A DNA stretch of 64,000 nt from Escherichia phage vB-Eco-KMB39: the sequence record OR539219.1. One strand, written 5' to 3'. The translations under genes were made by a program, and so were the position numbers. This document shows positions 1,783-63,943 of this stretch, piece by piece. Position 1 is the stretch's first letter. Each line of letters begins with the position of its first letter. The notes under the pieces were generated by a model that ran no database searches, was not told where the DNA came from, and saw only the letters and a list, made by a program, of their open reading frames with translations.

Positions 1783-2274
1783 ATGTTTGTAGATGATGTA
1801 ACACGAGCGTTTGAATCTGGTGATTTTGCTCGACCTAACTTATTCCAAGTAGAAATTTCTTATCTTGGACAAAATTTTACGTTCCAATGTAAAGCCACTG
1901 CTTTACCAGCTGGTATTGTAGAAAAAATTCCAGTCGGATTTATGAACCGTAAAATTAACGTGGCAGGCGATCGTACATTCGATGACTGGACTGTTACAGT
2001 AATGAACGATGAAGCTCATGATGCTCGCCAGAAGTTTGTTGATTGGCAAAGCATTGCTGCTGGTCAAGGAAACGAAATTACTGGTGGAAAACCTGCAGAG
2101 TATAAAAAGAGCGCTATTGTTCGTCAATATGCTCGTGATGCTAAAACAGTAACAAAAGAAATTGAAATTAAAGGTCTGTGGCCTACTAACGTGGGTGAAC
2201 TTCAATTAGATTGGGATTCAAACAATGAAATCCAAACCTTTGAAGTAACTCTTGCTCTCGATTATTGGGAATAA
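1783..2274 (+). CDS. 19: tail tube protein gp19
   Basis: 163 aa, MFVDDVTRAFESGDFARPNLFQVEISYLG...; two TATAAATA late promoters upstream. Confidence 0.9.
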   Translation: MFVDDVTRAFESGDFARPNLFQVEISYLGQNFTFQCKATALPAGIVEKIPVGFMNRKINVAGDRTFDDWTVTVMNDEAHDARQKFVDWQSIAAGQGNEITGGKPAEYKKSAIVRQYARDAKTVTKEIEIKGLWPTNVGELQLDWDSNNEIQTFEVTLALDYWE

Positions 2275-2281
2275 AATGAAT

Positions 2282-2295
2282 GGGGAGAAATCCCC
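2282..2295 (+). terminator. GNRA-loop hairpin after gene 19
   Basis: GGGGA-GAAA-TCCCC. Confidence 0.45.
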
Positions 2296-2306
2296 ATCCT
2301 GCTTAA

Positions 2307-3931
<1,625 letters not shown>

Positions 3932-3932
<1 letters not shown>

Positions 3933-4177
3933 TGGAAGGTTTAATTGAAGCTATTAAATCAAACGACCTCGTAGCCGCTCGTAAATTATTTGCTGAAGCC
4001 ATGGCTGCAAGAACGATTGATTTAATTAAAGAAGAAAAAATCGCTATCGCTCGTAATTTCTTAATCGAAGGTGAAGAACCTGAAGACGAGGATGATGAAG
4101 ACGAAGATAGTGATGATAAAGAAGACAAAAAAGACAAAGACTCTGATGAAGATGACGAAGACGAGGATGATGAATAA
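3932..4177 (+). CDS. 67: prohead core protein gp67 (acidic C-terminus)
   Basis: 81 aa, ATGA overlap with gene 20 stop; poly-acidic tail [30 protein letters not shown]; position between 20 and 68. Confidence 0.75.
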
Positions 4178-4602
4178 TGCTTCTGATCCCTGAAACTCAT
4201 GAATTAGTTCTCGAGAATGTCGAAGCACTTATTCCTGAAGCACAGGGTCGCTTTGACGAATTGTCTTCTGCTTTAAATAAAGACGATATAAATACAATTA
4301 TCGAGAATATGCTTGATGATGAAACTGATTTAGCAGTTGCATTAGCTTCTATTAATGAAAATATGCCGTTAAATGAATTCATTGTTAAGCATGTTTCAGC
4401 TCGTGGTGAAATTACACGTACTAAAGACCGCAAAACACGCGAACGTAATGCATTTCAAACCACTGGGCTGTCTAAAGCAAAACGTAGACAAATTGCTCGC
4501 AAAGCTACCAAAACGAAGATTGCCAATCCAGCAGGTCAATCTCGTGCTCAGCGTAAGCGTAAAAAAGCTCTTAAACGCCGTAAAGCATTAGGATTAAGCT
4601 AA
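4177..4602 (+). CDS. 68: prohead core protein gp68
   Basis: 141 aa; basic C-terminus; translationally coupled between 67 and 21. Confidence 0.7.
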
Positions 4603-5240
4603 TGAATGAACCCCAATTACTAATTGAAACTTGGGGTCAACCTGGCGAAATTATTGATGGTGTGCCAATGCTTGAATCCCACGATGGAAAAGACTTAGGT
4701 TTAAAACCTGGTTTATACATCGAAGGAATATTCATGCAAGCAGAAGTCGTCAATAGAAATAAACGTCTTTATCCAAAACGCATATTAGAAAAAGCGGTAA
4801 AAGACTATATTAATGAGCAAGTTTTAACTAAACAAGCTCTCGGAGAATTAAATCATCCTCCACGCGCTAATGTTGACCCGATGCAAGCCGCTATCATTAT
4901 AGAAGATATGTGGTGGAAAGGAAATGACGTATACGGACGAGCTCGTGTTATTGAAGGTGACCATGGTCCTGGAGATAAATTAGCAGCTAATATTCGTGCC
5001 GGATGGATTCCAGGAGTTTCTTCTCGTGGATTAGGTTCATTGACTGACACAAATAAAGGTTATCGTATCGTAAACGAAGGATTCAAATTAACTGTAGGTG
5101 TTGATGCAGTATGGGGTCCAAGTGCTCCAGATGCATGGGTAACTCCTAAGGAAATTACCGAATCACAGACGGCGGAAGCCGATACAAGTGCCGATGACGC
5201 CTATATGGCTCTCGCAGAGGCCATGAAAAAAGCGTTATAA
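4602..5240 (+). CDS. 21: prohead core scaffold/protease gp21
   Basis: 212 aa, [34 protein letters not shown]...; synteny. Confidence 0.9.
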   Translation: MNEPQLLIETWGQPGEIIDGVPMLESHDGKDLGLKPGLYIEGIFMQAEVVNRNKRLYPKRILEKAVKDYINEQVLTKQALGELNHPPRANVDPMQAAIIIEDMWWKGNDVYGRARVIEGDHGPGDKLAANIRAGWIPGVSSRGLGSLTDTNKGYRIVNEGFKLTVGVDAVWGPSAPDAWVTPKEITESQTAEADTSADDAYMALAEAMKKAL

Positions 5241-5243
5241 ATA
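5236..5243 (+). promoter_or_regulatory. late promoter core TATAAATA (gene 22)
   Basis: Overlaps gene 21 stop codon, 27 bp upstream of gene 22 ATG. Confidence 0.7.
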
Positions 5244-5270
5244 TTATTATCTAAACAACAGGACTACAAA

Positions 5271-6080
5271 ATGCTTAAAGAACAACTGATTGCCGAAGCG
5301 CAGAAAATTGATGCTTCCGTTGCTCTTGATAGTATTTTCGAATCAGTTAATATTTCTCCGGAAGCAAAAGAAACTTTCGGCACTGTATTCGAAGCTACCG
5401 TCAAGCAGCACGCCGTTAAATTAGCTGAATCTCATATCGCTAAAATTGCTGAAAAAGCAGAAGAAGAAGTAGAAAAAAATAAAGAAGAAGCCGAAGAAAA
5501 AGCTGAGAAGAAAATCGCTGAGCAAGCTTCTAAATTCATTGACCATCTTGCAAAAGAATGGCTCGCTGAAAATAAATTAGCAGTTGATAAAGGCATCAAA
5601 GCCGAACTGTTTGAATCCATGCTTGGTGGATTAAAAGAGCTCTTTGTTGAACACAACGTTGTTGTTCCAGAAGAATCAGTTGATGTTGTAGCTGAAATGG
5701 AAGAAGAGCTGCAAGAACATAAAGAAGAATCAGCTCGTCTGTTCGAAGAACTCAATATGCGCGACGCATATATCAATTATGTGCAGCGTGAAGTGGCATT
5801 GAGCGAAAGTACTAAAGATCTGACTGAGTCTCAAAAAGAAAAAGTCTCTGCTCTGGTCGAAGGTATGGATTATTCAGATGAATTCTCAAATAAATTGAGT
5901 GCCATCGTAGAAATGGTGAAGAAGTCTAATAAAGATGAAAGCACTATTACTGAGGGTATAAATACTCCTGATACTGAAGCAGCCGGACTGAATTTCGTCA
6001 CTGAAGCTGTAGAAGATAAAGCTGCACAGGGTGCAGAAGATATTGTAAGTGTATATGCGAAAGTCGCATCTCGTTTCTAA
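5271..6080 (+). CDS. 22: prohead scaffolding core protein gp22
   Basis: 269 aa, highly charged coiled-coil-like (E/K rich); late promoter TATAAATA at 5236. Confidence 0.9.
   Translation: MLKEQLIAEAQKIDASVALDSIFESVNISPEAKETFGTVFEATVKQHAVKLAESHIAKIAEKAEEEVEKNKEEAEEKAEKKIAEQASKFIDHLAKEWLAENKLAVDKGIKAELFESMLGGLKELFVEHNVVVPEESVDVVAEMEEELQEHKEESARLFEELNMRDAYINYVQREVALSESTKDLTESQKEKVSALVEGMDYSDEFSNKLSAIVEMVKKSNKDESTITEGINTPDTEAAGLNFVTEAVEDKAAQGAEDIVSVYAKVASRF
5957..5964 (+). promoter_or_regulatory. late promoter core TATAAATA inside gene 22 (gene 23 promoter)
   Basis: Exact match about 135 bp upstream of gene 23; a P23 promoter inside gene 22 is known for T4. Confidence 0.65.
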
Positions 6081-59860: not shown

Positions 59861-62800
59861 ATGGCTACTTTAAAACAAATACAATTTAAAAGAAGCAAAA
59901 CTGCAGGAGCACGTCCTGCCGCTTCAGTATTAGCCGAAGGTGAATTGGCTATAAACTTAAAAGACCGTGTACTTTTTACTAAAGATGACCAAGGAAATAT
60001 TATTGATCTGGGTTTTGCTAAAGGCGGTAGTATTGACGGGAATGTTATTCATACAGGCAATTATAACCAAACTGGCGATTATACTTTAAATGGCGTCTTC
60101 ACTCAGACTGGTAATTTTAATTTAACTGGTATTGCTCGAGTAACTCGCGATATTATTGCCGCTGGGCAGATTATGACTGAAGGCGGAGAACTTATTACAA
60201 AAAGTTCAGGTACAGCGCATGTTCGTTTTTTCGATAACAATAGTCGCGAACGCGGAATCATTTATGCCCCGGCTAATGATGGTTTAACTACACAAGTACT
60301 TAATATCAGGGTTCAAGACTACGCCGCTGGTAGCGAAAGCACTTATGCATTTTCAGGCAGTGGACTATTTACTTCACCTGAAGTATCAGCATGGAAATCT
60401 ATTTCGTCTCCACAAATTCTGACCAACAAAGTCATTACTAATAATAAATCTACGGGTGATTATGACATCTATTCGATGGCAGACAATGTTCCATTGTCTG
60501 AAAGCACTACTGCTATTAATCATCTTCGTGTCATGCGTAATGCCGTTGGTTCTGGTATTTTCCATGAAGTTAAAGATAATGATGGAATAACTTGGTATGC
60601 AGGTGATGGACTTGACACCTATCTTTGGTCATTTACTTGGAGCGGCGGAATTAAATCAAGTCACTCAATTTCTATTGGTTTAACACCTGGTAATAAAGAT
60701 TATTCAATATTAGGACCATCTAGTATTGCTTTAGGAGATAATGATACTGGATTTAAATGGCATCAAGATGGATATTATTTTAGCGTTAATAATGGAACAA
60801 AAACGTTTTTATTTAGTCCTAGCGAAACAACTAGCCTAAGAAAATTTGTAGCTGGATATTCTACTAACGGAACCGATTTAACTACTCCTCCAACTGAAAA
60901 TTATGCTCTTGCTACTGTCGTGACATACCACGATAATAACGCGTTTGGAGATGGTCAGACTCTTTTAGGATATTATCAAGGCGGTAACTATCATCACTAT
61001 TTCCGCGGCAAGGGTACTACAAACATTAATACTCACGGCGGTTTGTTAGTTACTCCTGGTAATATTGACGTTATTGGTGGTTCTGTTAATATCGATGGTA
61101 GAAATAATGCTTCTACACTGATGTTTAGAGGTAACACAACTGGTAGCAGTTCAGTTGATAATATGACAATTTCCGTGTGGGGTAATACCTTTACTAATCC
61201 TAGCGAAGGCACCCGTAAAAATGTCATGGAAATTTCTGACGCAACTAGTTGGATGAGCTATATTCAACGAACAACTGCAGGTAAAGTCGAATCGGTTATA
61301 AATGGCACCCAGATTGTTAATGAAAACTTGACAGTAGTAAAAAATGCTACATTTGACGGTACAATCAGCGCAGCCGGTGAAATCGCGACAAATGCTGTAA
61401 ATGGTCTTCGCATTTGGAACGCAGATTATGGAGCTATTTTTAGACGTTCAGAAGGAAGTCTTCATATTATTCCAACTGCTTACGGTGAAGGTAAATATGG
61501 CGATATCGGTCCACTTCGCCCGTTTAGTATGGCTTTAGATACTGGTAAAGTTACTATTCCAGATTTACAATCAAGTTACAATACGTTCGCTGCTAACGGT
61601 TATATTAAATTTGTTGGTCATGGAGCGGGTGCCGGCGGTTATGACATTCAATATGCTCAAGCGGCTCCTATTTTCCAGGAAATTGATGATGATGCTGTAA
61701 GCAAATATTATCCTATTGTTAAACAGAAGTTTTTAAATGGTAAAGCCGTTTGGTCTTTAGGTACTGAAATTAATTCGGGTACATTCGTTATTCATCATCT
61801 GAAAGAAGATGGTTCACAAGGCCATACGTCTCGTTTTAATCAAGACGGTACTGTTAACTTCCCAGATAACGTTTCTGTCGGCGGCGGTGAAGCTACTATT
61901 GCTCGTAATGGTAACATCTGGTCTGATATCTGGAAAACGTTTACTTCAGCAGGCGACGTAACTAATATTCACGATGCTATTGCTACTCGCGTTGCCAAAG
62001 AAGGCGACACGATGACCGGCACTCTTTGGATTAATAAAGATGCTGCTGGAATAGTTCTTAATCCTCCTTTGACCAGTGATTCATCATTTATTCGTTCTGA
62101 TACGGCCGGGGCCAATAATTGGTATATTGGTAAAGGCGGTGCCGACAATGGTCTAGGTTTTTACAGTTACATTACACAAGGCGGTGTATACATAACAAAT
62201 AACGGTGAAATATCGCTTTCTCCTCAAGGACAAGGAACATTTAATTTTAATAGAGACCGCCTTTATATAAATGCTAGTCAATGGGTTGCACATAAATCTG
62301 GCGCTTGGGGCGACCAATGGGGCTTAGAAGCTCCTGTATTTGTGGATTTTGGTAGCGTTGGTAATGATAGTTATTATCCTATTATCAAAGGAAAATCTGG
62401 TATTACTAACGAAGGATACGTATCCGGTGTAGATTTTGGTATGCGCCGCATCACTAATACATGGGCCCAAGGTATTATTCGTGTAGGTAACCAGGAAAAT
62501 GGCTCCGACCCGCAAGCTATCTATGAATTCCACTCTAATGGTACTTTTTATGCTCCGAGCTTACTTAAGAGCAACAGAGTATCGGCTGGTGGTGGAGACC
62601 CTGTATGGACTGGACCATGTATTGTTATCGGCGATAACGACACCGGATTGGTATGGGAAGCAGACGGTATTTTCAACGCATATGCAAACGGTCAAGGTGT
62701 GTTTAGTTTCCGCGCTGGTCTTGCTCAGACATTTGGCAACGTGTCCCTTAACGTTAACGCCGGTATGTACGTTCGTGATAACATTGATGTTAACGACGTT

Positions 62801-63130
62801 TATATTCGTTCTGATATTCGTTGTAAGTCAGAAATTAAGCTTATTAAGAACGCTCAAGAGAAATCTAAACTCTTAGGTGGTTATACTTATCTGCTTAAAA
62901 ACTCTGTCACAGACGAAGTTAAACCGTCTGCAGGTTTAATTGCTCAGGAAGTTCAAGAAGTATTGCCTGAACTTGTTTCTGAAGATAAAGAGACCGGCTT
63001 ACTTCGTTTAAACTATAACGGTATTATCGGTTTAAATACTGCTACTATCAACGAGCATACTGACGAAATCAAGGAATTGAAATCTGAAATTGCTGAATTG
63101 AAAGCATTAATTAAATCATTGATAAAATAA
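59861..63130 (+). CDS. 37: long tail fibre distal subunit gp37 with C-terminal intramolecular-chaperone-like domain
   Basis: 1089 aa; N-terminus MATLKQIQFKRSKTAGARPAAS...; C-terminal about 106 aa with SDIRCK and coiled coil. Confidence 0.9.
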   Translation: MATLKQIQFKRSKTAGARPAASVLAEGELAINLKDRVLFTKDDQGNIIDLGFAKGGSIDGNVIHTGNYNQTGDYTLNGVFTQTGNFNLTGIARVTRDIIAAGQIMTEGGELITKSSGTAHVRFFDNNSRERGIIYAPANDGLTTQVLNIRVQDYAAGSESTYAFSGSGLFTSPEVSAWKSISSPQILTNKVITNNKSTGDYDIYSMADNVPLSESTTAINHLRVMRNAVGSGIFHEVKDNDGITWYAGDGLDTYLWSFTWSGGIKSSHSISIGLTPGNKDYSILGPSSIALGDNDTGFKWHQDGYYFSVNNGTKTFLFSPSETTSLRKFVAGYSTNGTDLTTPPTENYALATVVTYHDNNAFGDGQTLLGYYQGGNYHHYFRGKGTTNINTHGGLLVTPGNIDVIGGSVNIDGRNNASTLMFRGNTTGSSSVDNMTISVWGNTFTNPSEGTRKNVMEISDATSWMSYIQRTTAGKVESVINGTQIVNENLTVVKNATFDGTISAAGEIATNAVNGLRIWNADYGAIFRRSEGSLHIIPTAYGEGKYGDIGPLRPFSMALDTGKVTIPDLQSSYNTFAANGYIKFVGHGAGAGGYDIQYAQAAPIFQEIDDDAVSKYYPIVKQKFLNGKAVWSLGTEINSGTFVIHHLKEDGSQGHTSRFNQDGTVNFPDNVSVGGGEATIARNGNIWSDIWKTFTSAGDVTNIHDAIATRVAKEGDTMTGTLWINKDAAGIVLNPPLTSDSSFIRSDTAGANNWYIGKGGADNGLGFYSYITQGGVYITNNGEISLSPQGQGTFNFNRDRLYINASQWVAHKSGAWGDQWGLEAPVFVDFGSVGNDSYYPIIKGKSGITNEGYVSGVDFGMRRITNTWAQGIIRVGNQENGSDPQAIYEFHSNGTFYAPSLLKSNRVSAGGGDPVWTGPCIVIGDNDTGLVWEADGIFNAYANGQGVFSFRAGLAQTFGNVSLNVNAGMYVRDNIDVNDVYIRSDIRCKSEIKLIKNAQEKSKLLGGYTYLLKNSVTDEVKPSAGLIAQEVQEVLPELVSEDKETGLLRLNYNGIIGLNTATINEHTDEIKELKSEIAELKALIKSLIK

Positions 63131-63133
63131 TAA

Positions 63134-63943
<810 letters not shown>

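Follow-up and report, generated by a model that had tools for sequence, protein, structure and literature searches.

Does the C-terminal end of gp37, the distal subunit of the long tail fibre of Escherichia phage vB-Eco-KMB39, carry a chaperone that cuts itself off and so leaves the fibre tip free for the gp38 adhesin? A first-pass annotation of the 64,000-nucleotide stretch analysed here (sequence record OR539219.1; hereafter the window) had proposed this reading, and the follow-up supports it, with the cleavage itself taken over from homologues. It is very probable that an S74-type intramolecular chaperone (IMC), which would cleave itself at Arg983/Ser984 before gp38 docks, explains this locus as a whole. 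We infer cleavage in this phage, its autocatalysis, the exact bond and the need for it in gp38 docking by homology.

The fibre genes of the window follow the order 34-35-36-37-38-t (Table 1), which is also found in a related contig with Pfam-labelled genes. Megablast matches of gene 37 were T-even gp37 genes annotated as “long tail fiber distal subunit”, and the fibre genes fall among those of Escherichia and Shigella T-even phages, with a top match of 91% across genes 37-38. The backbone (window 30000-54000) shows about 96% identity to RB3-like Tequatrovirus genomes. Its top megablast match (95.8% identity) is a 142-kb record named “Pseudomonas phage vB_PSGBLB0006” with P. aeruginosa listed as host; standing among Escherichia RB3-like Tequatrovirus genomes, this record looks mislabelled or contaminated. 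Within gp37, residues 450-556 (window 61208-61528) match Pfam Gp34_trimer (PF21446; E 1.8e-8, 35 bits, cut-off 27), which indicates, at the level of sequence, a putative shaft or trimerisation module common to the half-fibres of gp34 (proximal) and gp37 (distal).

The gene 37 stop codon (63128-63130) is followed by a second TAA (63131-63133) and then by a hairpin with a perfect 6-bp GC-rich stem and a TTCG tetraloop, which scores as terminator-like on the minus strand. Stable C(UUCG)G hairpins are known from intercistronic positions in T4 mRNAs, and the g37-g38 hairpin resembles these. T2 has a hairpin at the equivalent site which shares the TTCG loop but differs in its stem (AGAGGGC-TTCG-GCCCTCT), and in a related contig the hairpin occurs with a G-to-T variant. 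Scanned against Rfam at gathering thresholds, the whole window gave no match, so the hairpin belongs to no curated Rfam family. Scans for promoters and terminators near the domain stayed at background level, the hairpin being the sole notable site.

Table 1. Features of the long-tail-fibre region in window coordinates; cleavage and release are predicted from homologues
Feature	Coordinates	Strand	Basis or remark
Gene 34	54140..58009		
Gene 37, long-tail-fibre distal subunit	59861..63130	+	ORF, 1089 aa plus stop
Distal tip of mature gp37 (predicted), about residues 920-983, homologous to the gp38-carrying S16 tip	62618..62809	+	phmmer against 6f45_A
Predicted scissile bond Arg983/Ser984, between nt 62809 and 62810	62807..62812	+	Homology: S16 (S^S), fPS phages (R^S), T5 (T1263-S1264)
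Whole IMC domain, 106 aa, predicted release after trimer folding	62810..63127	+	
Peptidase_S74 core, residues 984-1039, with invariant G1025-LIAQE motif (62933-62950) and P1036	62810..62977	+	Pfam PF13884
Putative catalytic loop S984-D-I-R-C-K989	62810..62827	+	Ser nucleophile codon 62810-62812, Lys general base codon 62825-62827
C-terminal long helix, residues 1052-1088, heptad repeat; presumed to be the IMC's trimeric coiled-coil stalk	63014..63124	+	DSSP helix 83-119 of the 120-aa query
g37-g38 hairpin AGGGCC-TTCG-GGCCCT	63135..63150	+	Between g37 stop and g38 Shine-Dalgarno GGAGG
Gene 38, adhesin predicted to cap the processed gp37 tip	63161..63943	+	Pfam GP38 3.9e-72, Gp38_N 1.7e-20
Holin gene t	start 63976		

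Pfam family PF13884 (Peptidase_S74, “Chaperone of endosialidase”) covers gp37 residues 984-1039 with profile positions 1-57 of 58, and the match starts precisely at Ser984. The whole protein reaches 45.4 bits (E 9.9e-12) and its C-terminal 136 aa reach 50.4 bits (E 2.7e-13), the gathering cut-off being 22. The likeness to self-cleaving chaperone domains that had been noticed from the letters is thus backed by a profile match well above threshold and, as described below, by fold matches. The predicted active-site Ser had been placed at about nucleotide 62810, and the TCT codon at 62810-62812 does encode Ser984, the first residue of SDIRCK; the proposed length of 106 residues is exact (Ser984 to Lys1089), and both strings quoted for this region, SDIRCKSEIKLIKNAQEKSKLLGGYTYLL and LNYNGIIGLN, are found in gp37. 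Among the 1089 residues, the pattern SD.R.K is found at a single place, the start of the PF13884 match. The spacing suggested for a Ser-Lys dyad also holds, as S984 and K989 lie at +5, equal to S1264 and K1269 of T5.

A homologue search with residues 970-1089 gave 115 proteins, all except two of which carry PF13884 as a precomputed match. In the 116 rows formed by these homologues and the query, S984, D985, and K989 are each kept in 108, the other rows being mostly gaps, while G1025, A1028, Q1029, and P1036 are invariant (116/116) and L1026, I1027, V1039, and Y1052 nearly so. The pattern is repeated in a 59-sequence alignment (A1), where S984, D985, and K989 are nearly invariant (90% or more). 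The domain sits at the extreme C-terminus of a phage fibre protein (984-1089 of 1089), and its identity as a Peptidase S74-family C-terminal intramolecular chaperone domain is confirmed.

Position 988 (62822-62824) of the SDIRCK loop is a Cys, as it is in phage OLB35; Leu is found here in 70/116 homologues, and Cys is outside the four commonest residues of this column in the 116 rows. No minus-strand ORF of at least 50 aa overlaps 62810-63130. On the plus strand, a 125-aa ATG-initiated ORF in the +2 frame (62499..62876) lies wholly inside gene 37 and spans the tip/IMC junction. Of related interest, a 166-kb phage contig in an E. coli assembly (ABZCBI010000006.1 in GCA_050537045.1) has a fibre region 89% identical to the window, for which (2102-5366) the gene table gives just a 121-aa IMC-only “tail fiber domain-containing protein” that begins at the internal Met969. 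The gene 37 frame is nonetheless open over about 1087 codons in this contig, and the 121-aa product is 100% identical to the window sequence; the entry probably reflects a fault of annotation or indexing and no separate gene.

The fold of the domain was modelled with AlphaFold2, run on alignment A1 for residues 970-1089 as a monomer (120-aa query). The model (mean pLDDT 91.2, pTM 0.77) consists of a small alpha/beta lobe, with short strands only (residues 39-44, 51-56, 70-72, and 79-81 of the query), and then one helix of 37 residues. The coiled coil expected at this end of the protein is borne out by this continuous predicted helix, by the regular a/d heptad that its sequence contains (I1070, L1073, I1077, L1080, I1084, L1087), and by weak matches of the C-terminal profile positions to designed and GCN4 coiled-coil peptides. 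The modelled helix agrees with the central trimeric coiled coil of the T5 chaperone, a feature found in the IMCs of both K1F and T5 (PMC4690869).

In a Foldseek comparison of the model with the PDB, the top rank went to the MyRF ICA domain (7dc3; E 4e-5, TM 0.63), and the K1F endosialidase chaperone came next (3gw6). An S74-like fold, on which the first-pass annotation had made its reading depend, is thus predicted by AlphaFold2 and has fold matches in the PDB. Sequence searches of the PDB with the single sequence and with the 59-sequence profile reached S16 gp37, MyRF, the 8jov tail fibre, and, weakly, the phage neck appendage 3GUD (E 0.03), whereas K1F endosialidase (3GW6) and T5 pb1 (4UW8) were not reached at E<0.01 in these searches and were matched by fold comparison only.

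The nearest solved relative is gp37 of Salmonella phage S16 (6f45_A; E 2e-31 in the single-sequence phmmer search, 3e-36 in the profile search), and the alignment extends from CIVIGDNDTGLVW (residue 920) across the cut site as far as the last residues. According to PMC7917993, which summarises Dunne et al. 2018, the last 113 residues of this protein form an IMC that is autocleaved at DLNVS^SDRRIKK, which exposes the docking face for gp38. The S16 and T5 fibres are also listed among the proteins that lose C-terminal IMCs by autoproteolysis (PMC7289586). Both S16 gp37 and the window protein belong to T2-type gp38-adhesin fibres and have the domain at the same C-terminal position; both contain the S-D-x-R-x-K, GLIAQEV..LP.LV, and LNYNGI motifs and the terminal heptad helix, and both are followed by a gp38 adhesin gene with a conserved Trp-bearing N-terminal attachment domain. 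The window phage differs from S16 in the length of the IMC (106 aa versus about 112-113), in the P1 residue, which is Arg (DVYIR/S) instead of Ser (DLNVS/S), in a divergent tip segment from GDNDTG to the cut site, and in a gp38 receptor-binding domain that is PP01-type and not S16-type. As for gp37 itself, the differences, namely IMC length, P1 Arg, and Cys988, are of detail only.

Processing of the gp37 C-terminus followed by capping of the fibre with gp38 was described in T2, as cited in PMC3157838 from Drexler, Riede and Henning (1986, J Mol Biol 191:267). T2 gp37 (AP018813) reads NVYIR-SDIRLKS, and its C-terminal part, counted from the Ser, is 99 residues long. It shares the VYIR-SDIRxKS junction and a downstream gp38 adhesin with the window phage, but its 99-aa IMC is only about 28% identical beyond the junction and its tip about 32%. 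In Gp37 of the Yersinia phages fPS-2, fPS-65 as well as fPS-90, DVYIR^SDGRLKI was aligned to the S16 site and cleavage was predicted after DVYIR, with three DVYIR strands making up a flat tip that takes the conserved tryptophans of gp38 (PMC7917993). In a comparison confined to the junction, DVYIR followed by SD.R.K is identical between these Yersinia phages and the window, the loop being SDGRLK in the former and SDIRCK in the latter.

A mechanism is described for T5 pb1, in which Lys1269 activates Ser1264, cleavage falls between Thr1263 and Ser1264, and S1264A blocks the reaction; an Arg from the neighbouring chain makes cleavage depend on correct trimer folding (PMC4690869). In both K1F and T5, this Arg “folding sensor” and an Asp (oxyanion hole) come from the neighbouring chain or the preceding domain (PMC4690869). 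By sequence inspection, beside a model of the monomer only, R972, D973, D976, D979, and R983 upstream of the cut site are candidates for such neighbouring-chain elements in gp37. As judged from the model, the window IMC is shorter than that of T5 and is without an obvious counterpart of its 50-angstrom “tentacle” hairpins. In addition, no separate adhesin caps the tip after cleavage in K1F and T5, whereas gp38 caps the T2/S16-type tip. The MYRF ICA domain (7DC3) belongs to a eukaryotic membrane-bound transcription factor and is functionally unrelated to phage adsorption, as cleavage there frees a transcription factor and not a fibre chaperone.

The gp37 tip ends in the strand D979-V-Y-I-R983 (62795-62809), and the corresponding pre-cleavage strand is VYIR in T2 and VYVR in PP01. 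By analogy with the systems above, three nascent gp37 chains would associate via the IMC, comprising the alpha/beta lobe and the trimeric coiled coil, which would nucleate the folding of the trimeric fibre tip and set its register, starting at the C-terminus. After correct folding of the tip, Ser984 would be activated by Lys989 and attack the Arg983-Ser984 bond in each chain, and the 106-residue IMC trimer would dissociate after the cut. One gp38 may then dock onto the newly exposed flat tip of three DVYIR strands through its Trp-bearing N-terminal attachment domain, and this gp38 would supply receptor specificity. That cleavage frees the gp37 tip for gp38 is the published model, as given by the S16 and fPS literature, and all sequence-level prerequisites for docking according to this model are present in the window.

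Against the PDB, the gp38 of the window matches S16 gp38 (6f45_D, 8e-52) and 9v85_A (7e-137). Over residues 39-260 it shares about 97% identity with the receptor-binding domain of PP01 gp38 (9V85), the crystallised domain which binds OmpC of E. coli O157 (PMC12892980). W9, W22, and W37 align with Trp in the gp38 N-terminus of S16, T2, OLB35, and PP01; the role assigned to these tryptophans, insertion into the gp37 tip, is taken from PMC7917993.

An S74-type chaperone might still be removed by a host or phage protease, or be cut at a bond other than Arg983/Ser984, for example after Ser984. The title of the original T2 work speaks of “proteolytic processing” only and gives no mechanism, but an external protease would have no need for Ser984 and Lys989, which are kept at catalytic spacing, and T5 cleavage is stopped by S1264A upon expression in E. 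coli (PMC4690869). Regarding the bond, the side of the cut varies in the literature, as the phi29 gp12 appendage was modelled with the catalytic Ser remaining on the mature protein as its last residue (PMC4690869), and the putative Arg/Asp active-site elements from neighbouring chains are represented in gp37 by candidate residues only; in S16 gp37, however, autocleavage is reported before the equivalent Ser (PMC7917993). We therefore consider such a route, by another protease or at another bond, to be improbable.

A degenerate S74 domain that stays in the virion, with gp38 attached elsewhere or to the uncleaved protein, would have only the unusual Cys988 of the catalytic loop to point to, and is very improbable given that the catalytic and core residues are all intact, that other isolated phages carry an IMC of 99% identity, and that both the tip and the N-terminal part of gp38 have their homologues in the S16 complex, where docking follows IMC removal. 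As for a compositional match from a coiled-coil-rich C-terminus, the terminal helix on its own does give weak generic coiled-coil matches, yet the PF13884 match falls in the non-helical N-terminal half at 23-28 bits over the gathering score, the fold matches are specific, and all but two of the 115 homologues carry the family. The likelihood of this explanation is negligible, and chance resemblance was ruled out by Pfam score, conservation, and fold matches. The self-cleaving IMC followed by gp38 docking thus remains the preferred reading.

The fibre-tip region of the window is a mosaic (Table 2). OLB35, a phage filed under Mosigvirus, matches the gp37 tip and IMC (window 62438-63130, residues 860-1089) and gp38 1-45 at 92-100%, and the crossover from OLB35-type to PP01-type lies within gp38 at about 46-110, where all three are alike. 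By this pattern of identity, the gp38 attachment domain has stayed with the fibre tip and the IMC as one unit, and it is the receptor-binding domain that was exchanged. Lock-and-key modularity of gp37 and gp38 has been described before by Trojet et al. (PMC3157838), and in a gp38-deleted T2, PP01 gp38 was unusable until its N-terminal 113 residues were swapped for those of T2 (PMC12892980).

Table 2. Identity (%) of gp37 and gp38 segments to the window
Segment	OLB35	PP01	T2
gp37 tip 860-978	92	44	32
Junction 979-991	100	69	77
IMC 992-1089	99	63	28
gp38 N-terminus 1-45	100	58	64
gp38 46-110	94	95	42
gp38 111-260	52	97	55

The junction is far better conserved than its flanks (69-100% identity versus 28-63% for tip and IMC), and mosaicism with a break inside the strand that precedes the IMC was noted earlier (PMC7917993). 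The junction (D/N)VY(I/V)R/SDIRxK might also serve as a recombination joint at which tip, IMC, and gp38-attachment modules are shuffled, or, in a variant of this idea, the released IMC trimer might have a second role such as handing over gp38; we hold either addition to be unlikely.

The phenomenon of C-terminal processing (1986), its mechanism (2007-2018), and the exact junction (2021) are already known from the literature, and a 99%-identical IMC is already present in phage OLB35; the gp37 IMC opens no new biological question. For annotation, mature virion gp37 would be taken as residues 1-983, with the gp38 docking face made by removal of 984-1089. Recombinant fibre production requires that the IMC stays in the construct, and in host-range engineering by swaps of the gp37 tip or gp38, the N-terminal domain of gp38 must fit the type of gp37 tip.
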